11,153 bases of DNA, from positions 1-11,153 of IMG/VR virus record IMGVR_UViG_2541047938_000007. One strand, given 5' to 3'. This stretch comes from a virus. Its lineage: Duplodnaviria > Heunggongvirae > Uroviricota > Caudoviricetes. The position numbers and the translations under genes are program-made. The notes below the pieces were generated by a model. It saw only the letters and a list, made by a program, of their open reading frames with translations. It was not told where the DNA came from and ran no database searches. Positions 678 through 10,355 of this stretch are shown piece after piece; within the stretch, counting starts at the first letter, position 1, and every line of letters starts with the position of its first letter.

Positions 678-1040
678 ATGTTAAAACTTTTTGCTAAGTA
701 CACATCGATTGGCGTACTCAACACGCTCATTCACTGGGTTGTGTTTGGTGTTTGCGTGTATGGACTATCAACAAGCCAGGCATTGGCTAACTTCGCTGGC
801 TTCGTCGTCGCAGTGAGCTTCAGTTTCTACGCTAATGCACGGTTCACCTTCAATGCTTCAACATCTACCCTGCGCTATATGCTCTATGTGGGCTTTATGG
901 GCACGCTGAGTGCTGCGGTAGGTTGGGCTGCTGACAGGTGTGGGTTACCGCCAATCGTCACACTGGTGGCGTTCTCAGCCATTAGCCTTGTATGTGGCTT
1001 TTTCTATTCTAAGTTCATTGTCTTTAGGGAAGCGAAATGA
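678..1040 (+). CDS. gtrA: GtrA, bactoprenol-linked glucose translocase (flippase) of O-antigen glucosylation systems
   Basis: 120-aa, very hydrophobic small protein with about four predicted TM segments. ATG at 678; stop overlaps the gtrB start (ATGA at 1037-1040). Size, hydropathy and sequence resemble GtrA/YfdG of serotype-converting phages (recalled). First gene of a three-gene gtr triad. Confidence 0.88.
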
Positions 1041-1948
1041 AAATTTCTCTGGTCGTTCCGGTCTTCAATGAAGAGGCCACGATACCGATTTTCTATAAAA
1101 CGGTGCGAGAGTTCGAGGGGCTAAAGCAATACGATGTTGAAATCGTGTTCATTAATGACGGAAGCAAAGACGCAACAGAATCAATTATTAATGCGCTTGC
1201 TGTTTCTGACTCGTTAGTTACCCCGCTCTCATTTACCAGGAACTTTGGCAAAGAGCCAGCTCTGTTTGCCGGGCTTGAGCACGCTACTGGCGATGCTGTA
1301 ATTCCGATTGATGTTGACCTGCAAGATCCGATTGAAGTCATCCCTCACCTGATTGAGAAATGGCATTCGGGTGCCGATATGGTACTGGCAAAACGCTCTG
1401 ATCGTTCTACTGATAGCAGGCTTAAGCGTAAGTCTGCTGAATGGTTCTACAAGCTGCACAATAAAATTAGCTCACCAAAAATTGAAGAAAACGTTGGCGA
1501 TTTTCGTCTGATGTCTCGCGAAGTTGTCGAAAACATTAAGCAATTACCAGAGCGCAATCTATTCATGAAAGGCGTTCTTAGTTGGGTTGGTGGAAGGACT
1601 GATGTCGTCGAATATGCACGTGCAGAGCGTGTCGCTGGAGATTCCAAATTTAATGGCTGGAAGCTTTGGAACCTTGCCCTTGAAGGCATTACAAGCTTCT
1701 CAACATTCCCATTACGTATGTGGACGTACATTGGATTATTTGTTGCTGGACTTTCATTCCTTTATGGCGCATGGATGATTTTAGATAAGATTCTTTTTGG
1801 CAACAGCGTTCCAGGCTACCCATCACTACTCGTTTCTATCCTGTTCCTGGGAGGCATACAACTTATAGGTATAGGGGTACTTGGTGAATACATTGGAAGA
1901 ATCTATGTGGAAGTAAAGAACCGACCGCGATATATTAAGAAAGGTTAA
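1037..1948 (+). CDS. gtrB: GtrB, bactoprenol glucosyltransferase (GT-2 family)
   Basis: 303 aa. N-terminal GT-2 features ([15 protein letters not shown], DxD-like IPIDVDLQD) and C-terminal hydrophobic helices. Translationally coupled to gtrA. Typical GtrB/YfdH size and order. Confidence 0.9.
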
Positions 1949-1952
1949 TTTC

Positions 1953-3320
1953 ATGAATATTAAGCTTGATGCTAAATTTTTATTCTTTGGTGCGCCATTA
2001 TTTTTTTATTTCCCTTTTATTATCAATGGTGTTTTATATAGAGATGATATAAATCGAGCAACAGAGAATTTTACATACTGGTCTTGGCTGGGAAGACCAG
2101 TATCAGATTTAATTTGGAAAGTCCTATCTTTAGGAGGTCAAGGACCACTCTTAGAACCATTGACGATTATATTATCTATTTTTATATTGGGTTTTTCAGT
2201 AAATCTGTTTTATCAAAAAACCAATCACTTATTTCATGACGCAGGTCCTTTTGTATATATTTTATTAGTAATATCTCCATTTTACACTCAAAATATTTCA
2301 TATCAATATGATGGCATAACGATGTCAATCGCAGTTGCATGCGCACTGATTGCCACAATTGTCACACTGAAAGAAAACTTAATATCATATTTAGTTCACT
2401 GCGCTTTGCTTGTTATAGCAATGTCAATTTATCAGACAACTCTAAATATGTTTGCAATCCTTTCTTTGGCAATTATTTTCGCGAAGACTTGCACACACAA
2501 AGCACTGCCATTGAAATATTTAGCATGCATCGCCTCATCTTTTGTTCTTGCGTTAATTTTATATAAATTTCTAATTATAGATGTATTTATTTCATCCTCA
2601 CGAAGTGACATATCACTAGACAATCTCCACACAAACTTCATTAACTTCTCATCAATTATAGCATCACCATTTAGAGGTTATTTAGTTTCAATATTTTATT
2701 GCATTGTCGCCTTATCTTTTTATTCTTTAATAAGAAAGAGAGGTGTTTTGATTGGAGTAACGTTCCTTTTCTTCTGTGTAATGGCATTCTGTTTAATTGC
2801 AGGTCCATTTATTTTACTAAAAGAAGGGATTGCAGAGCCTAGAATGTTATTAGGATTCTCACCATTTATATTTCTCTGCCTTTACCCACTTAGAGGGAGA
2901 ATCTCAACAGTATCTTCTGTGATAGTTTTTTCTGTATTTACAATAATATCTTACCAATGTGCCTCTTCAATTAAAACACAGAATGATTATGAAAAATCGC
3001 TTGCCATGCAATCCTCTCAGGAAATTATTAACGCGGTAAAGGAAAAGTCTTCAAAGGTTTATATACAAGGCGAATTTCCGCTATCAAAAATATCCAAAAA
3101 CTCTGCGGCGGATAATGAGTTCATTAACAAAATGATTGCCCCCTCCCCTTGGTATACAAGAATGTTAATTAACATTTATTATCCCGGAACTGTACACATT
3201 GATTGGAAGGGAAAATACTTATCTAGTCACGAATTAGAAAAATGCAATGTCTTAAAGAGTAATATCTTACTAACTATATATAACTGTAATAATATTACCT
3301 ACGTTGAAATTCACAAATAA
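1953..3320 (+). CDS. serotype-specific O-antigen glucosyltransferase (GtrC / type-specific Gtr family), polytopic membrane protein
   Basis: 455-aa ORF starting 5 nt after the gtrB stop. Highly hydrophobic N-terminal two-thirds with a more hydrophilic C-terminal domain. Markedly AT-rich relative to gtrA/gtrB, as is typical for the variable third gene of gtr operons. Exact type not recognised. Confidence 0.7.
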   Translation: MNIKLDAKFLFFGAPLFFYFPFIINGVLYRDDINRATENFTYWSWLGRPVSDLIWKVLSLGGQGPLLEPLTIILSIFILGFSVNLFYQKTNHLFHDAGPFVYILLVISPFYTQNISYQYDGITMSIAVACALIATIVTLKENLISYLVHCALLVIAMSIYQTTLNMFAILSLAIIFAKTCTHKALPLKYLACIASSFVLALILYKFLIIDVFISSSRSDISLDNLHTNFINFSSIIASPFRGYLVSIFYCIVALSFYSLIRKRGVLIGVTFLFFCVMAFCLIAGPFILLKEGIAEPRMLLGFSPFIFLCLYPLRGRISTVSSVIVFSVFTIISYQCASSIKTQNDYEKSLAMQSSQEIINAVKEKSSKVYIQGEFPLSKISKNSAADNEFINKMIAPSPWYTRMLINIYYPGTVHIDWKGKYLSSHELEKCNVLKSNILLTIYNCNNITYVEIHK

Positions 3321-3328
3321 ATAGTATT

Positions 3329-3351
3329 GTGCGCCGAAAAACTCGGCGCAC
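3329..3351. terminator. GC-rich hairpin between convergent gtr(type) and tailspike genes; putative bidirectional terminator
   Basis: GTGCGCCGA-aaaac-TCGGCGCAC, a perfect 9-bp stem, sits exactly between the gtr(type) stop (3318-3320) and the tailspike stop (3354-3356). Flanking U-tracts are weak. Confidence 0.45.
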
Positions 3352-3353
3352 TA

Positions 3354-5312
3354 TCATTGAGCTTGAGCCGTTAGTATTTGACCACCAGAATACGCAGTAA
3401 GACTAGTAATTTCATTAGCCAAAAGGACTTTGAACATATTTCGATCTTGACCAAATACAGCACCAGAAAAAAATGTACCAAGATTTCTATTTCCTCCGGC
3501 AGTAGGCATTCTTATAAATAAGTATGATGTTCCTTCATATGTCCCTGTAAACCAAGCATCATAATCTGCGAGAGATTGACTATCACAGTGAGCAGCTCTA
3601 ACTAATTTTGCGCGCGTAGAGATATTGCTGCCTACTGTATTAAAGTCATACGCTCCCGCTATGGGATTAAGATCTTGCCCGCTACGTAATGTATAAATAG
3701 TTCCAATGCACCCACGTCCACCATATTGCCCCCCCATAATGCGATAGTACGGACCCGCCGTTTGGTCTGGATTGGGTAGAGTCAAATCTCTACACATTGT
3801 TGTGCTAAATGTAGGAATGGTGGCCGTGCCTCCATCAAAACCGATAGTACTGAATGTTGCTGTTGTAGTATCATAAGCATTGCGCTGAGGCCACCCTGAC
3901 TCTGGTTTGTTACTATATATAATCTCAAACTTGGCACCATTTAATGTTCTAGATCTTGCCCCATTGCAAATGGTATCTGAACTACAAACCAGTTGCTTAA
4001 TGCTTACTTTTGAATAACCTGATATGTCAAACATATACGTCCCTGCAACTTGAGTTTGTGTATACAGTTGTAGGTTATTTATCTGTAAGTTTGCGCCAGT
4101 AGATTTAATTACAGTGCCATTATTATTCCTATTTGGCTGTTCACAACCTAGCGATGAAATGCTAAATGAACCACTATTAAATACAAATGGTGTACCCAAG
4201 CAATCATCTGAAGCTAGAGGTCCAACTTCACAATAAGACACTGACAATTCGAATGAACAGTAGTTTGAACGAAACACACTGCAATTTGCAATAGTGTAGC
4301 TCGTTCCTCCCTTTATAAAAAACCCTCCGTAAATTCCAGCATTATCAGATCCTTGAACAACTATATCTTTTACTGTAATAGCAACAAATGTATTACCACC
4401 AAAGTAGACACCCCACTTCATGGCGAGGATAAATAGATCACTTAATTCTTGGTAAACCGCTGTATTAGGCGTGTAATACCCATAGCTGTCTTCAGTCGTA
4501 TCAATTATCCTGAGACCGTGAATAACATTCCCACGCTTACCTTTATTATAAAACACCGCGTTCACATCCTGTGTGCTAACGCCTACTTTCCTGATTATAG
4601 ACCCCCTACCTTCACCAACAAAACGACTACCAGGTTGTTGGTAGTATAACTCATTATATACATCCTGAAGATCATATAAAATAACACTATCGGTAATAGT
4701 ATAATCTCCAACTGGAACAAAAATGATTTTACCAAACTGGGCAGACACCTTAGATGCTCTATTAAAAGCGAGTGTCCAATCAGGGTCTGAATCAAGTTTA
4801 AAATCCAATACCGAGATTAATTCAGCGTTTTTGTTATGCTGCGTTCTGCTTGCAGTCCCATCAAAAGGCTGCTTAACAGCAATAAGAGCATCTCCGTATT
4901 CAGGAGATGCCAACATCACCCTAAGAGATGAATCTCCAATGCCTACCCATGCTCCAGCGCCAACACCACCACTTGAATCTGGGGTCGAGCCTGCATTTAC
5001 AACTTTTGGAAGGTCACCATCCCAACGGTAATATTCACCGTCACCATCAGGTAACTTCCAGCGTAAAGCTTGATCAGCTTCAGTTAACGTATTGCCTTCC
5101 TGGAAGGAGTCCATCAAATTCCATCCCATGGATGATAGTTTTTCCTGATAGCGCTTTTCCATTCCATACCAGGTAAGGCGATCAACGCCGAATCTGTCTT
5201 TCCATACCTCATTTTCTTTGTCATTAGAAAGGTAGTCAAAGTTCTGAGAATTGTCGTATAAATCTTTTGCAGCAGCAGACCCCAGCGGATTGCCGGTATT
5301 ATAAGTAGTCAT
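3354..5312 (-). CDS. phage tailspike / tail fibre protein (receptor-binding protein, probable beta-helix O-antigen-recognising domain)
   Basis: 652-aa ORF, ATG at 5312..5310 with GAGG 6 nt upstream. Last gene of the minus-strand tail module, directly after the J-like gene. Gly/Ser/Thr/Asn-rich with beta-strand-like periodicity typical of tailspikes. The N-terminal about 150 aa resemble conserved anchor domains of enterobacterial prophage tail fibres (recalled, unverified). Confidence 0.65.
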   Translation of the reverse strand: MTTYNTGNPLGSAAAKDLYDNSQNFDYLSNDKENEVWKDRFGVDRLTWYGMEKRYQEKLSSMGWNLMDSFQEGNTLTEADQALRWKLPDGDGEYYRWDGDLPKVVNAGSTPDSSGGVGAGAWVGIGDSSLRVMLASPEYGDALIAVKQPFDGTASRTQHNKNAELISVLDFKLDSDPDWTLAFNRASKVSAQFGKIIFVPVGDYTITDSVILYDLQDVYNELYYQQPGSRFVGEGRGSIIRKVGVSTQDVNAVFYNKGKRGNVIHGLRIIDTTEDSYGYYTPNTAVYQELSDLFILAMKWGVYFGGNTFVAITVKDIVVQGSDNAGIYGGFFIKGGTSYTIANCSVFRSNYCSFELSVSYCEVGPLASDDCLGTPFVFNSGSFSISSLGCEQPNRNNNGTVIKSTGANLQINNLQLYTQTQVAGTYMFDISGYSKVSIKQLVCSSDTICNGARSRTLNGAKFEIIYSNKPESGWPQRNAYDTTTATFSTIGFDGGTATIPTFSTTMCRDLTLPNPDQTAGPYYRIMGGQYGGRGCIGTIYTLRSGQDLNPIAGAYDFNTVGSNISTRAKLVRAAHCDSQSLADYDAWFTGTYEGTSYLFIRMPTAGGNRNLGTFFSGAVFGQDRNMFKVLLANEITSLTAYSGGQILTAQAQ

Positions 5313-5326
5313 ATGGGCCTCATTAA

Positions 5327-5348
5327 CAAAAAACCTGCCAATGCAGGT
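5327..5348 (-). terminator. putative intrinsic terminator/attenuator between the J-like gene and the tailspike gene
   Basis: On the minus strand ACCTGC-attg-GCAGGT (6-bp stem, 5333-5348) is followed by UUUUUUG (5332-5327), then the tailspike RBS and ATG. Confidence 0.45.
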
Positions 5349-5369
5349 TAATGGAGATGTTATTAGTGA

Positions 5370-7592
5370 TTAAGAAATGTTGCCGGGGTAAGTGGCATTA
5401 TCATATTGATAGAAAGAGTCGCGATATTCTTTGGCTGTTACCTGACATGTTCCGTCAGACTGCGGTGATATCTCTGAGATTAGTGCACTGTAACCAACAC
5501 GTGAAGATTCGCAGAATATAAGACGTGGAGGTTCTATCGATTGATCATTCAGTATGATGCCAATGAACTCATCCTGTTCAGATACCGATAGTTCATAATC
5601 ACTAACTTTAGTAACTGGAAGCAGACCAGAAGCTGATCCATCCTGGTAGCGAATCAATGCGCGAGGATTGTTGAATGTCCAGTCAAGAGGCTCTGAAACT
5701 GTGAATGTCGTTACGCCGCCACTCGTACTCATATCATCGATCAATGTGCTTATTGTTTTGCTACCAGGAATGTCATCAGTAAACACAATTCTGTCACCTA
5801 CGCTATAGCAAAGTGCATCCATTTCCGTGGTCGTTGTATGGGTAAGACGCTGCTGCCTGTACTTCATCAGTCGTCGCATACCTATCTGATAAGCCCTGTC
5901 CTGGTCAAGAACACCATCAAGATCGTAATCTTCTATTTTCACTGGCGTAGGATTGTCAGACGTTCTGCACTGAACAGTCTCTTCAGCCCACGTAGTGCCG
6001 TTAATGTAAGTGACATCCACTCCATCATAATCATCGGCTGATGGTGCAACGAAGGCCGTTTGAAGCGCTTCTGTCATTTCCTGCGGACTAATTATTCCCG
6101 TCCACGTTTTTACCCCCTCCCTTCCCACTGAAGCCATACCGTCAGACAGCAGAAAATAGCTTTTACCTGCGTTAGTGACTTTCTGTAGCATTTCAAGCGC
6201 GGAAACTGAGTCGGTTGTTGCGTAATCGAAAAACTCGCTATCAGGCGTCCAGTAAGATGATTCCAGCATATCAATCACTTCGTTATCCATCGCAAGCCCT
6301 AACTCATTACCAATGTGGTAAAGCGCGCCTGAAATGCTCCTGGAAATACCGGAATCATAAATGCGTGTGGCGACTACGTTGACACGGCGATCAGACTGAG
6401 CGGCAAGCTTTCCACCTGTTTCGACTGAGACAGCCATAGTGGTTACACCAGAGTATGATGATGGTCTTGAAAGCAACCTCCCCCTTAATGACTGCCAGTA
6501 CATGTTATCCCTGCTGTTATCCTGGCCTTGTTCGTTCGTTCTCCTGCATCTAACCTCCACCAAACCGGCCGATGCCAGCGTGATACGTTCGGTAAAACCT
6601 AACCCATTAATATTTTGCTGATTGTAAGACCCAGTTTTGCTTGTCCATCCTGAACCCGAACCGTAAACACGGTACTGAATTTCCCACTGAACAATCCTGT
6701 TCTGCTTCTTGCCTTTCTTGTTATACCCGCAAATACCGTTAGCCAGGTCAACAACGCCGCCAACCAGGTCAGTTAGTCCCTGAATCACCTGAGGGTCTTT
6801 GAAAACATCGCCCATGTCAGTGATCGCATTCTGTAATCCTGACAGGTCAACATTTGCAAGACCGGTAGCAATCTCAATTTTTACGCCGTTAACCTGCGTC
6901 TCCATGTCTTCAAACAGGGAGTTTACTTTCACCAGTTTTTCGATGTCTGCATCATCAGGGGCAACACCAAACTGCTTTGCCGCGTCCATGTACTGGCGAA
7001 GCTTTTCACCACCCTGATCAAGTAAGGGCAGGAGCTTTGACAGGTCATTACCAAGGCTTTCGAGAATGGTTGTTTTTTCGGCGTTTGTTTTTATCTTACC
7101 AAGAGCATCGCTGATAGCGAGAAGTTGTTTATCAGGTGACTCACCGGCTAATTTTTTTGCGGATAATCCAAGCGCATCAAGCGCACCGACAGCTTCACCA
7201 GATTTATTTAAGACCGCATCACCAATCTTATCGCCAATATCTTTAAAGATATCGGCCATCTGGTCACCAGATACCCCAGCCTTTTCGGCTGCATACTGCC
7301 AAGCCAGCAGAGACTGAGTAGACATATTGAGCGACTTAGCCCAACGGTCTGTTTCAGTGATCTGTTTGGAAGTGGTTTTCAGCAGGTTATAACCAGCAAC
7401 GCCTACACCAATTGCCGCAGCGCTTGCTGCTGTCGCAAAAGCGGTGAACGCGGTGGCCGCAGCCTTGGCGTCGGATTGTACCTGTTTACGCCATTTTTGA
7501 GATGCTCGCTCAGACTGGCTTAGGCCAGAGACAAAACCACCAACCTTAGCAACAAGGTCGATAGTCAACGTGCCGAGGGATTTACCAGCCAT
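5370..7592 (-). CDS. tail protein: tape-measure-like N-terminal region fused in frame to a host-specificity (lambda J-like) region
   Basis: 740 aa. ATG at 7592..7590 lies 1 nt after the stop of the GT frameshift product, the expected tape-measure position. Residues 1 to about 290 are Ala/Lys/Gly-rich and coiled-coil-like, typical of a tape-measure N-terminus. From about residue 300 there are J-like motifs (LRGRLL...PSSY; AYQIGMRRL...FSVGDRIVFTDD; PPRLIFCESSRV), aligned by eye to the central part of lambda J. Confidence 0.65.
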   Translation of the reverse strand: MAGKSLGTLTIDLVAKVGGFVSGLSQSERASQKWRKQVQSDAKAAATAFTAFATAASAAAIGVGVAGYNLLKTTSKQITETDRWAKSLNMSTQSLLAWQYAAEKAGVSGDQMADIFKDIGDKIGDAVLNKSGEAVGALDALGLSAKKLAGESPDKQLLAISDALGKIKTNAEKTTILESLGNDLSKLLPLLDQGGEKLRQYMDAAKQFGVAPDDADIEKLVKVNSLFEDMETQVNGVKIEIATGLANVDLSGLQNAITDMGDVFKDPQVIQGLTDLVGGVVDLANGICGYNKKGKKQNRIVQWEIQYRVYGSGSGWTSKTGSYNQQNINGLGFTERITLASAGLVEVRCRRTNEQGQDNSRDNMYWQSLRGRLLSRPSSYSGVTTMAVSVETGGKLAAQSDRRVNVVATRIYDSGISRSISGALYHIGNELGLAMDNEVIDMLESSYWTPDSEFFDYATTDSVSALEMLQKVTNAGKSYFLLSDGMASVGREGVKTWTGIISPQEMTEALQTAFVAPSADDYDGVDVTYINGTTWAEETVQCRTSDNPTPVKIEDYDLDGVLDQDRAYQIGMRRLMKYRQQRLTHTTTTEMDALCYSVGDRIVFTDDIPGSKTISTLIDDMSTSGGVTTFTVSEPLDWTFNNPRALIRYQDGSASGLLPVTKVSDYELSVSEQDEFIGIILNDQSIEPPRLIFCESSRVGYSALISEISPQSDGTCQVTAKEYRDSFYQYDNATYPGNIS

Positions 7593-7593
7593 G

Positions 7594-8237
7594 CTATGTC
7601 CACTCCTGCATAGCCTGTTCCAGTGAAATGGAAGGCTCGTTAATGTGTGGTGTGAAGTCTGTTACTTTGAAGTGGGGTGAATCTTTTCCACGGTTGACGT
7701 TTGCCAGCACAGAAGAAATTAGGCCAGCGGCCCACTCGGTACGCATCATTCCGTTAAGGCTTCCGTACTTTTGACGGTAAAGAACCCAGTCGCGATACTC
7801 TGTAACGCTAACGCGTTCTTTTGCTTCAGCAATGGTGCGGCCGCCGATCCCGTTGAGAACTAATTCACACCAGAATTCGTCGTCTGCGCTGAGTTCGCCT
7901 TTCCCAGGTCGTTAACCTGCTGAATAGCGACAAGCAGAGCAACCGTAAGAGCACCATCGAGTGCGCCGCGCTCAGGATCTGCTTCACCAGTGATATCGGC
8001 AACAGTGAAAACTGGAGCGCCATTTTCATCACAGATGGATGCAGCGATACGCCCTGCTACACCATCAATTTTCCCCACCGCTGAAAGAACATTTGATACC
8101 GCGTCGTGATAACCCATTGGTCGGATATAAACGGTAGCTGTGATCTCTTTATCGCCCTGCTTCCAGGTGATTTCCTTCTCAACAGGACGACCAGTAAACG
8201 CCCCTGCCTGTTTTAACGAATCCAGATTCAGTTTCAT
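7594..8237 (-). CDS. tail assembly chaperone G-T fusion made by programmed -1 ribosomal frameshift
   Basis: The -1 frame stays open from the heptamer GGGAAAG (7905..7899, minus strand) for about 100 codons to a TAG at 7596..7594, which ends 1 nt before the next gene's ATG. This is the same arrangement and the same heptamer as lambda G/GT. Confidence 0.6.
7860..8237 (-). CDS. tail assembly chaperone (lambda gpG analogue)
   Basis: 125 aa, ATG at 8237..8235 with GAGAGGAAAG upstream. Sits immediately upstream of the tape-measure-like gene. Contains the slippery heptamer G GGA AAG 13 codons before its stop. Confidence 0.75.
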   Translation of the reverse strand: MKLNLDSLKQAGAFTGRPVEKEITWKQGDKEITATVYIRPMGYHDAVSNVLSAVGKIDGVAGRIAASICDENGAPVFTVADITGEADPERGALDGALTVALLVAIQQVNDLGKANSAQTTNSGVN

Positions 8238-8254
8238 TTCTTTCCTCTCAGTTT

Positions 8255-8270
8255 GCGGGGTTTCCCCCGC
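8255..8270 (-). repeat. GC hairpin copy 1 (mRNA sense GCGGGG-gaaa-CCCCGC), between the major-tail-like ORF and the G gene
   Basis: 6-bp stem with a GNRA-type GAAA loop on the late transcript, followed by the RBS and ATG of the chaperone gene. Identical core to the copy at 8943-8960. Confidence 0.5.
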
Positions 8271-8287
8271 TTATTAATGCCTGGTTA

Positions 8288-8689
8288 TTAGCTCGTTGGT
8301 TGGGCCTTTGGAACCCAAACACCTTGCCCTGAACGCTGAATGGTTGCGGAAGTTTGCACGACCGTATTCGCCTGGAAGTCGAACGGGAAATCTGAAACAT
8401 AACCCTGGAATACATACCAGGTACGTGTATCCGGCAGAGAAAGACCATCAACTGCATCTGGATCACCAGACGTCGCTACCGTTGGTTCATCCGTTCCGTC
8501 AGCCCAGCCAATAGCGAAGGTCAGGTTTGTCTGGTCACTGGATTCAGCCAGGTTGCTCAGCATTACATGGCTGGAGTTTGCCGGGTCTGCGTTAAGAGCT
8601 ACAGTAGCCTGACCGGGGGTGCGCAGACCTTTTTTGTAGGAACGAGTATTGGTTTCACTCAGACAGGTATCTTCAATCTGGTCTGACAA
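8288..8689 (-). CDS. major tail protein-like ORF, possibly 5'-truncated (lambda V position)
   Basis: 133-aa ORF in the ORF track that actually starts at a TTG with no convincing RBS. Occupies the position just upstream of G/GT, and has weak by-eye resemblance to the lambda V core. It is in the same frame as the upstream 56-aa ORF, separated by a single TGA. May be a remnant rather than an intact gene. Confidence 0.4.
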
Positions 8690-8764
8690 AGGAAAATATC
8701 GGAGTCCAACCGCGAGATGATGGTTGCTGTAGTGCTTTCTCTTTCCGTCTAAAAGGATTCCACA

Positions 8765-8935
8765 TCAGCCATTCTCCGCGTTTTCTTTTTTACTTTTACG
8801 CACCACTGCTTTTTTGCTGGTTACGTATTCCGCCTTTTTCAGCAGAACCAGCACCTTTGCGCACTGGTCATTCACAATTTTCTCATCACCTGGCAATGAG
8901 TCATGTGTACGCTGAAGGTATCTGATTTTTGCCAT
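8765..8935 (-). CDS. small Lys-rich hypothetical ORF (56 aa)
   Basis: ATG at 8935..8933 sits 5 nt after the hairpin at 8943-8960. A strong SD-like GAAGGAGG lies immediately upstream of that hairpin. Not in the supplied ORF track (shorter than 60 aa). Coding status uncertain. Confidence 0.3.
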   Translation of the reverse strand: MAKIRYLQRTHDSLPGDEKIVNDQCAKVLVLLKKAEYVTSKKAVVRKSKKENAENG

Positions 8936-8942
8936 TTGAAAT

Positions 8943-8960
8943 GGCGGGGTTTCCCCCGCC
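8943..8960 (-). repeat. GC hairpin copy 2 (mRNA sense GGCGGGG-gaaa-CCCCGCC), between the structural-gene fragment and the 56-aa ORF
   Basis: 7-bp stem with GAAA loop, same core as copy 1. On the mRNA it is flanked by GAAGGAG upstream and an AUG 5 nt downstream. Confidence 0.5.
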
Positions 8961-8967
8961 CTCCTTC

Positions 8968-9468
8968 TTAGCTGGTTGAGCCAGTGCTGTAATCCACGTC
9001 AGAGATAACGGCTACGGCTGCATCACGGCGACGCTTCCAGTTAATCCAACGCTCGGCACGGATTGCCACGCTGTTGGTCTGGAACATAGACACCAGTTCA
9101 ACTGGAGTTGGCGTTGTGCTGTCGTGGGTCGGATCGCTCTGCATTTCCAGAGAAGCTTCGCGAGACATATCAACGGCGACGCCGCCATCATCTGCCAGAT
9201 AAACATCTGGTGCGTTAACCAGTACCAGTTGGTTGCCAACGTACTGTGAAACGATCACCGGCAAGCCCTGGAACGTACCGCCCAGCATGGTCATATCTGG
9301 GTATTCTTTCTGACCAAGCGCGTTTTTACGCATAGACAGAGTAAGTGCCGTAGTGCTGGACATCAGCCATACCGCACCATTCGGCTGCAGGTTGTTCGTA
9401 ATGAACTGACCAAATGCTGCAGAAGCATCAGTACAGGCTAACCATGAGCATAGTTCGATGTCACGCGT
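8968..9468 (-). pseudogene. 5'-truncated phage structural gene fragment (capsid or head-tail protein-like C-terminal part)
   Basis: The reading frame is open from 9468 down to the TAA at 8970..8968. The annotated ATG at 9363 has no RBS and is probably an internal Met. The fragment runs head-on into the 5' end of the integrase fragment. Family assignment is tentative. Confidence 0.4.
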
Positions 9469-10057
9469 TTACAGGTGGGGATATCAACGTGGATTTGTGC
9501 CAGGCAACCCATGCGTAGGCGTCGATAAATACCCTAAACCTCAGCGCGACCGATACATTACGGATGAAGAGTATTTAGCGATTTATGACTGTGCTACTGA
9601 TCCGGTCAAAGCAGCAATGGAAATTGCTTATCTCTGTGCCGCCAGGGTTTCCGATGTTCTGAAAATGGACTGGAATCAGATAATGGATAAAGGAATTTTC
9701 ATTCAACAGGGTAAAACTGGAGTTAAGCAGATTAAAGCGTGGACAGACCGTTTGCATTCAGCAGTCAATCTTTGCAGGAAATCAGGGGAAGATGGCGCTG
9801 TCATCAAAACCATGTACGGAGAGCGATATTCCTATAAAGGTTTCAATGAAGCCTGGAGAAAGGCGAGAAATGCGGCTGCTGAAAAAATTGGCAGACCGTT
9901 AGACTGCACGTTCCATGATCTGAAGGCGAAAGGCATTTCTGACTATGAAGGAAGTGGCCGCGATAAGCAAAAATTCAGTGGTCACAAAACTGAATCACAG
10001 GTGCTGGTATACGACAGGAAAGTAAAAATCAGCCCAACTTTGAACAGAAAAATGTGA
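9458..10057 (+). pseudogene. tyrosine recombinase (phage integrase), C-terminal catalytic-domain fragment, 5'-truncated
   Basis: 199-aa ORF with catalytic-domain features (AARVSDV Arg region, HDLKAKG, GHKTESQVLVYDR with the C-terminal Tyr). Lacks the N-terminal arm-binding and core-binding domains; there is an in-frame stop at 9407-9409 just upstream. It is transcribed toward the 3' end of the adjacent tRNA, as expected for an int next to attL. Confidence 0.8.
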
Positions 10058-10069
10058 GTTTGAGATACA

Positions 10070-10099
10070 GCGCCGGGTGCAAATCTGGCGTTATTTTTT
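10070..10099 (+). terminator. putative Rho-independent terminator downstream of the integrase fragment
   Basis: Stem CGCCGG / CTGGCG (one G-U pair) with an 8-nt loop, followed by TTATTTTTT, starting 13 nt after the int stop. Confidence 0.5.
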
Positions 10100-10126
10100 C
10101 TCAGTGGATTTTCTCATTTTTTCTCA
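10093..10126. repeat. direct repeats ATTTTTTCTCA (x2, plus a third TTTTCTC) between int and the tRNA 3' end; candidate att-arm/IHF-type sites
   Basis: ATTTTTTCTCA at 10093-10103 and 10116-10126, with TTTTCTC also at 10109-10115. Located in the expected attL arm region. Function not demonstrable from sequence. Confidence 0.3.
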
Positions 10127-10172
10127 ACGGGATGTTGGTCACTGAATCGAAACACTGTAAGTGCTTGAATGG

Positions 10173-10262
10173 TGGCGGAGAGAGGGGGATTTGAACCCCC
10201 GGTAGAGTTGCCCCTACTCCGGTTTTCGAGACCGGTCCGTTCAGCCGCTCCGGCATCTCTCC
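10173..10262 (-). tRNA. serU: tRNA-Ser (anticodon CGA)
   Basis: The minus strand reads GGAGAGATGCCGGAGCGGCTGAACGGACCGGTCTCGAAAACCGGAGTAGGGGCAACTCTACCGGGGGTTCAAATCCCCCTCTCTCCGCCA (90 nt). It has a 7-bp acceptor stem, anticodon stem CCGGT/ACCGG with loop CUCGAAA (anticodon CGA), a long variable arm, a T-loop GGTTCAAATCC, and an encoded CCA. Confidence 0.9.
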
Positions 10263-10355
10263 GTTCAGATGGTTGCCATGATGCCAGGAAATTTGGCATT
10301 TTAACAGTCCCTGTCCGTGCAATTTTGTTCAAGTGACGAGTTTGCGAGCAAAACG

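Follow-up and report, generated by a model that had tools for sequence, protein, structure and literature searches.

The 740-codon open reading frame (ORF) in the window, that is, in the whole stretch of 11,153 nucleotides of DNA analyzed here, is with high probability a chimeric relic gene in a cryptic, gtr-carrying prophage of the siphovirus type at the tRNA-Ser gene serU of Escherichia coli. Comparison with undeleted relatives supports the origin of this gene through one in-frame illegitimate deletion that joined the front of a tape-measure gene to the back half of a TipJ gene. At the level of sequence, the alignments demonstrate which two genes are the parents, where the breakpoint lies and what microhomology it has, what the deletion removed, that the element is a remnant and that undeleted precursors exist. 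The chimera is a product of ordinary prophage decay and not a new kind of protein.

Domain organization of the 740-aa ORF

The ORF, its two parts and the genes immediately upstream are located as follows.

5370..7592, - strand: chimeric ORF, 740 aa, with tape-measure residues 1-284 fused to TipJ residues 450-905
6741..7592, - strand: N-terminal 284 codons of the tape-measure gene (98% identity to the L002 protein; PHROG 2854)
6740..6742: deletion joint J1, 3-nt microhomology (TAG on +, CTA on -), located by overlapping alignments to undeleted relatives
5370..6740, - strand: C-terminal 456 codons and stop codon of the TipJ gene, with the native C-terminus (alignments to the L002 and L001 TipJ; NF040662)
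7594..7749, - strand: T part of the G-T tail assembly chaperone (Pfam Phage_tail_T)
7860..8237, - strand: intact gene for the tail assembly chaperone (G equivalent), 125 aa (Pfam Phage_TAC_13, E 8e-35)

As an earlier note on this DNA had recognized, the ORF starts where a tape-measure gene should: its ATG (7592-7590) is located 1 nt past the TAG of the T frame (7596-7594), the T frame remains open upstream as far as about 7911, overlapping the end of the gene for the 125-aa chaperone, and the slippery heptamer GGGAAAG, canonical for the lambda-type G-T frameshift, is present at 7899-7905. Tape-measure homology was found along with this placement after the G-T chaperone genes. A search with PHROG profiles splits the 740-aa protein cleanly in two, with residues 1-286 matching positions 1-289 of 855 of the tape-measure family PHROG 2854 (E 2e-111), in line with the previously noticed resemblance over about 290 residues, and residues 283-738 matching positions 425-902 of 903 of a PHROG tail-protein family (E 1.5e-149). 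In the second part, the Pfam domains FNIII-A_GpJ and Phage-tail_3 were detected at residues 288-370 and 516-610, respectively, and the NCBIfam TipJ-family domain NF040662 extends over residues 284-729 (profile positions 15-477 of 477) with a score of 422.5 bits, compared to the curated cut-off of 140. The domain-level profile search that the earlier note had proposed as a check thus finds the N-terminal region to be tape-measure-like and the C-terminal region to be of the TipJ/Phage-tail_3 type. The match to the FNIII-A_GpJ profile does not begin until position 39 of 126, indicating that the deletion joint cuts into the FNIII-A domain. The switch between the two parts, between residues 284 and 285, corresponds to nucleotides 6740-6742; the switch itself had been perceived before, but was placed at 6690-6730, 10-50 nt away from its actual position.

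The 740-aa protein is named by NCBI after its TipJ parent alone, 'host specificity factor TipJ family phage tail protein'. Annotation pipelines name chimeric ORFs after one parent, which calls for caution in annotation and in protein-family databases.

The parent genes and the 4359-bp deletion

The main reference for the analysis of the parents was L002, a prophage in E. coli PCP07014 with an apparently intact region of structural genes. Its 841-aa tape-measure protein shares 98% identity with the chimera over residues 1-284 of both proteins, and its 905-aa TipJ protein, from residue 450 to the last residue, 905, shares 87% identity with chimera residues 285-740. A closer TipJ relative is found in L001 (E. 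coli Z142-3), with about 95% identity over the stretch of residues 285-740; the identity of 83% for the L001 TipJ alignment overall reflects the extension of that alignment into the tape-measure part. When the window is aligned at the DNA level to L002, L001 and L015, the two aligned segments overlap by 3 nt at positions 6740-6742, so that the alignment to intact relatives and the search for microhomology, both suggested at the outset, yield the TAG at this breakpoint. Compared to the undeleted tail modules of L002 or L015, exactly 4359 bp are absent from the window, which bears out the original proposal of a single frame-preserving deletion. The lost segment encompasses tape-measure codons 285-841, three minor tail/virion genes encoding proteins of 157 aa, 160 aa (DUF1833) and 126 aa, and TipJ codons 1-449. 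The intervening genes, which the earlier note had taken for the equivalents of M, L, K and I, were indeed removed, but this family has three of them, not four. A single illegitimate, microhomology-mediated deletion of this size would have brought the two frames into register by chance, allowing the 740-codon ORF to survive.

The comparison with the families of the two parents shows what the chimera has retained. With the lambda-type tape-measure proteins (gpH; TIGR01541 / PF09718), it shares the start behind a G-T pair with GGGAAAG; unlike them, it keeps only the first third, the tape_meas_lam_C domain and the C-terminus being deleted. In an intact relative, this domain (TIGR01541 / PF09718) is present at residues 433-697 and 576-662, whereas the profile search of the chimera did not detect it; the full ruler length is lacking as well. 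With the TipJ family (lambda gpJ relatives; NF040662, PF24801, PF13550), the chimera shares the TipJ domain, a partial FNIII-A domain and Phage-tail_3, but lacks the N-terminal 449 residues, the alignment to the 905-aa relatives starting at residue 450. At the other end, the alignment reaches residue 905 of 905 and is followed by the tailspike ORF, as in the relatives. The impression that the protein ends well before a lambda-type J C-terminus is accordingly correct only in that the 905-aa TipJ family itself is shorter than lambda J; the end of the chimera is the native C-terminus of this family and has not been shortened. The sole solved structure with sequence similarity to the chimera is 9occ chain E (putative tail protein gp14, 828 aa), a distant match (E 2e-11) in which only the TipJ-derived half is aligned, with chimera residues 334-730 matching residues 410-823 of 828, the C-terminal end of that chain. 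With the intact 905-aa TipJ protein as the query, the search of solved structures gave no match.

We considered whether the contiguous protein could be the native architecture of an undescribed phage lineage, with tape-measure and tip encoded in one gene. Nothing beyond the open frame itself speaks for this possibility, which we regard as exceedingly improbable: the undeleted precursors, in which the genes are separate, share 92-97% DNA identity with the respective parts of the window, and the element lacks head, portal, terminase, tip and replication genes. In the isolated E. coli siphovirus vB_EcoS-733R5, the tape-measure gene, the three small genes and the TipJ gene are all separate as well. 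Among 50,697 phage records, none contains a single place covering at least 80% of the chimera; the protein matches in these records cover the TipJ half or, separately, the tape-measure half, and a megablast search of the phage records gave no match at the DNA level. An exact search for the junction 23-mer gave no match in IMG/VR or among the GTDB representative genomes. These results agree with the previous assertion that no known phage encodes such a protein.

The identical 740-aa protein is present in the same context on 5 contigs; four of these 5 represent one assembly from NCBI and three sequencing runs that were each assembled independently, and their DNA identity to the window across its length is 99.97-100%. 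Given this recurrence in separate assemblies, a mis-join of two tail genes during sequencing or assembly can be dismissed as having a negligible probability. The distribution is nevertheless narrow: the exact protein forms a one-member cluster that is found on a few contigs only.

A decayed prophage at serU

The window is 100% identical to contig KE702357.1 of the E. coli assembly GCA_000461255.1. This prophage remnant measures roughly 10 kb and is located at the tRNA-Ser gene serU, in a chromosomal setting with the yodB/zinT side on one flank and the tRNA-Ser gene followed by mtfA on the other. In addition to the genes listed above, it includes the following features.

678..3320, + strand: gtrA, gtrB and a serotype-specific glucosyltransferase gene (O-antigen modification cargo), all with intact ORFs
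3354..5312, - strand: full-length tailspike gene, 652 aa (Pfam Tail_spike_N; PHROG 21710 positions 71-653 of 654)
8288..8689, - strand: tail tube gene with the 5' end deleted, 133 of 165 aa (Pfam Phage_TTP_11 positions 36-154 of 154)
8682..8685: deletion joint J2, 4-nt microhomology TCTG, out of frame
8968..9363, - strand: C-terminal fragment of the major capsid gene, 131 aa (PHROG 617 positions 517-626 of 626)
9431..9433: deletion joint J3, capsid fragment to integrase
9458..10057, + strand: C-terminal half of a tyrosine integrase, 199 aa (Pfam Phage_integrase)
10158..10233: att repeat, 76 nt, with a second copy 133-209 nt left of window position 1
10173..10262, - strand: tRNA-Ser (CGA), the attachment site

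Integration at a tRNA gene with a flanking att repeat, combined with the loss of the genes for excision, replication, packaging and virion assembly, identifies the element as a defective (cryptic) prophage, in which three deletion joints were mapped. Joint J2 connects the truncated tail tube gene, which is present as full 165-aa copies in L002, L007 and L015, to the 5' end of what is annotated in L002 as the portal gene; in L002 coordinates, the alignment of the window stops at 13951 and picks up at 18017, and the tail tube ORF restarts at a TTG at 8689. The capsid fragment aligns to L002 positions 18303-18698, and a 329-aa version of the integrase is annotated in L009. The window has two same-strand joints, one in frame and the other out of frame. 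Examination of the ORFs, Pfam and PHROG searches and alignment all failed to reveal terminase, portal, connector, tail completion, lysis or early genes in the element of the window. The earlier characterization of the element as tail-defective thus holds as far as the defect goes but is an understatement, given that what is kept amounts to no more than a fragment of the capsid, a tail tube truncated at the N-terminus and half of an integrase.

The gtr cluster belongs to the Pfam families GtrA_DPMS_TM, Glycos_transf_2 and Glucos_trans_II. Among the serotype-converting phages of Shigella and Salmonella and their remnants, gtr-carrying prophages adjoin tRNA genes. The element in the window shares with the cryptic gtr prophages of Enterobacteriaceae the tRNA site, the integrase at one end, gtrABC next to a fibre or spike gene at the other, and the degraded state of the element with gtr left intact; it differs from them in being located at serU of E. 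coli and in having a siphovirus tail module of the lambda/HK97-like type. In Salmonella, a gtr operon is located inside a large remnant P22-like prophage (PMC3688519). Our literature search found no description of the serU element, its deletion alleles or tape-measure::TipJ fusions.

Related deletion states

To place the deletion among related elements, states of the serU element were retrieved by looking up the 199-aa integrase fragment. Two of these, L015 and L020, are undeleted and contain the genes for the tail tube, G, T, the 841-aa tape-measure protein, the three small proteins and the 905-aa TipJ. The shared DNA of L016 (the same place as L007, encoding protein P0002) is 100% identical to that of L015; L016 carries a different in-frame deletion, from tape-measure residues 1-242 to TipJ residues 436-905, with TA microhomology and a resulting protein of 712 aa. 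L021, a member of the same clone as L015 in which the shared DNA is also 100% identical, carries a third deletion, with TT microhomology, that is out of frame and leaves ORFs of 635 and 306 aa. From gtr up to and including the TipJ C-terminus, L014 and L023 share 99.975% identity with the window, and in these elements TipJ is kept from about residue 115 and is joined directly to the integrase fragment. The interval from tape-measure to TipJ was thus lost repeatedly, twice within one clone.

A protein search yielded a further in-frame tape-measure::TipJ chimera, P0003, along with TipJ chimeras with other partners, one internal TipJ deletion, and a triple chimera in which a piece of a putative terminase large subunit, so recognized by a DNA match to an L002 gene, is followed by tape-measure and TipJ pieces. 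The breakpoints differ in every chimera. To judge from these sequences, the pattern looks like repeated, unspecific microhomology-mediated deletion in a decaying prophage. The in-frame chimeras came from a protein search, which is biased toward open frames, so an apparent excess of in-frame products is to be expected. The coexistence of the undeleted state with in-frame and out-of-frame deletions in a single clone indicates that frame preservation is not a rule, and the open frame of the 740-aa ORF is most probably due to chance.

Taken alone, the chimera matters little, being a textbook case of how prophage decay makes long chimeric ORFs. In addition, the near-clonal genomes that contain the precursor together with several deletion products could be used, as a natural time series, to follow the domestication of a prophage around the gtr cargo.

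Function and selection

The chimera is most likely non-functional, considering that the tape-measure C-terminal domain and the N-terminal half of TipJ are missing and the FNIII-A domain is cut, and that the element has lost its head, connector, tail-tip and replication genes. Most plausibly, the adjacent gtrABC cargo is the trait retained by the host, and the chimera and the tailspike gene would persist through linkage and because the deletion is recent. The chimera is best viewed as a pseudogene-like remnant in linkage with the gtr cargo that has been retained. Against the interpretation as a relic, the ORF is long and uninterrupted, and the G-T genes and the frameshift signal upstream are intact, so that the ORF could be translated if it is transcribed. 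A sigma-70-like promoter match was not found on the - strand upstream of the ORF, which is weak evidence for a relic.

Comparison of tape-measure codons 1-242 between the window and the L007 allele reveals 32 synonymous and 0 non-synonymous changes. The divergence of the tape-measure part between the two amounts to 4.4%, against 0.75% in the chromosomal flank, a sixfold difference. This synonymous divergence predates the deletions, given that L016 is identical to its undeleted precursor L015, and therefore points to purifying selection in working phages and not on the chimera. Because all carriers of the window junction encode an identical protein, a dN/dS estimate for the chimera itself has no power.

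These observations bear on the alternative that the ORF encodes a domesticated, functional protein, for example one in which the TipJ C-terminal half docks the adjacent tailspike, with the frame kept by selection. Such a role would be compatible with the frame being open over 740 codons, with the intact tailspike gene downstream, with the existence of at least three independent in-frame tape-measure::TipJ chimeras (the window, P0002/L016 and P0003) and with the lack of non-synonymous changes compared to L007, but the last of these dates from before the deletions and the recurrence of open frames is favoured by the protein search itself. Moreover, the out-of-frame L021 and the undeleted L015 occur in the same clone, each chimera has a different breakpoint, the joint of the window cuts into a domain, a promoter-like site was not found upstream, and the distribution is very narrow. 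We consider domestication to be quite improbable and favor the interpretation of the ORF as a relic.

A recurrent deletion endpoint in the integrase gene

In a separate observation, a single nucleotide position in the integrase gene, window 9431/9432, was found to be the endpoint of four different deletions in this prophage family. The intact integrase copies (L009, L024, L025 and L027) read AAAGCCGCG-TA-CAGGCTAACC at this endpoint. The partner to the left is the capsid gene in the window; in L014 and L023 it is TipJ at about residue 115, in L015, L016, L020 and L021 it is the gp17 tail completion gene, and in L022 and L026 it is the lysozyme gene. Three integrase alleles, distinguished by synonymous changes, are represented at the recurrent endpoint. 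L022 is L017 minus an internal segment, and the integrase of L017 is already truncated 30 nt further upstream; with the truncation preceding the L022 deletion, the element's own integrase is not required. The partners share only the TA plus 0-2 further nucleotides at the endpoint, and no recombinase-like motif beyond this microhomology was found at the four partner sites.

A hairpin at the endpoint was considered and rejected: folds of 100 nt and 40 nt on both strands were no better than those of shuffled sequences (z-scores 0.75, 0.43, -0.47 and -0.28), so that a strong secondary structure is unsupported. Candidate ideas for the cause of the recurrence include a replication pause with template switching, a cleavage site for a nuclease or topoisomerase, and a mobile element that has vanished. 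The recurrent endpoint could point to a specific deletion mechanism.

By extension, the deletion at J1 could itself be ascribed to a site-specific or hot-spot process instead of random illegitimate recombination, given that four deletions share the exact integrase endpoint and that tape-measure-to-TipJ deletions recur. We judge this highly improbable: the tape-measure and TipJ endpoints differ among the window, L016, L021 and P0003, these deletions carry only 2-3 nt of unrelated microhomology (TAG, TA, TT), and no other lineage was found to share the endpoint at tape-measure codon 284 or at TipJ codon 450. The recurrence in the integrase gene leaves the reading of the 740-aa ORF as the product of an illegitimate deletion unchanged, the endpoints of the ORF being unique.

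A broader possibility, which we put forward as a doubtful but not negligible one, is that the decay of gtr prophages at serU is non-random, with the integrase site seeding nested deletions and the chimera resulting from directed or selected pruning down to gtr, the tailspike and the TipJ C-terminus; an unrecognized site-specific activity or selection for an open tape-measure::TipJ frame would then be behind the pattern. Scans of metagenomes and IMG/VR for the integrase endpoint revealed no new junction class and recovered intact integrase copies together with one more junction of the lysozyme class. Truncations of this integrase at other positions also exist.

Deletions in the tape-measure-to-TipJ module

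Three E. coli assemblies, GCA_958335465.1 (locus L015), GCA_958335435.1 (L016) and GCA_054817025.1 (L021), whose shared DNA is 100% identical, carry the tape-measure-to-TipJ module in an undeleted form and in two different deletion states, namely an in-frame deletion that creates tape-measure(1-242)::TipJ(436-905) in L016 and, in L021, loss from the same interval with the frame broken. These loci are a natural series comprising a precursor and its products.

Two further loci, L014 and L023, have a sister arrangement that matches the window across gtr, the tailspike gene and the TipJ C-terminus (window 2770-6742) with 99.975% identity; they retain TipJ from about residue 115 onward, fused directly to the same integrase endpoint as in the window. 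Neither this arrangement nor that of the window is derivable from the other.

Deletion endpoints

In the window, a second deletion joint links the tail tube gene, truncated at its 5' end, with the 5' end of a gene that carries the portal annotation in L002, a prophage of E. coli PCP07014.

Window 8682-8685: out-of-frame joint with TCTG microhomology
Window 8968-9363: capsid C-terminal fragment, 131 aa, adjoining this joint

Deletions that join the integrase gene to four different sequences, from capsid, gp17, lysozyme and TipJ (at about residue 115), all stop at one identical integrase nucleotide, GCG|TACAGGCTAACC. The carriers of this endpoint have three synonymous integrase alleles. The joints share a microhomology of just TA with 0-2 nt more, and folding predicts no significant hairpin at the endpoint. 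Its positions are as follows.

Window: 9431-9433
L014, L015, L016 and L020-L023: about 7974/7975
L026, another locus: 12006/12007

Other decayed elements at serU

The same gtr cluster is present at the same locus, with a different decay, in E. coli CUWW10 (L009, NZ_CP182145.1), where gtrB is interrupted by IS1, and IS1A separates a truncated tailspike gene from a longer, 329-aa integrase gene. In another serU element (L013, GCA_025797805.1, 5310-8255), the two small tail genes are inverted and the TipJ gene contains an internal in-frame deletion joining residues 1-114 to about residue 385; thus, inversion and deletion are combined in one element.

Possible mosaicism of the tail module

Comparison of the tape-measure N-terminal 242 codons of the window (6867-7592) and L007 (10001-10726), the locus at the same place as L016, revealed 32 synonymous and no non-synonymous substitutions. 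The DNA divergence between the two is 4.4% in these codons, compared to 0.75% across the flank that runs from mtfA to the integrase. Hence the tail module comes from a different phage lineage, functional at that time, from the one suggested by the flank; this points towards mosaicism or recombination.

Terminator-like hairpins

Terminator-like hairpins are over-represented in window 3300-10300 (19 found versus 5.7 expected), with the following examples.

Window 8943-8960: terminator-like hairpin
Window 8255-8270: terminator-like hairpin

Some of the window's hairpins are GC-rich palindromes, located shortly downstream of the tail tube gene and the capsid fragment.
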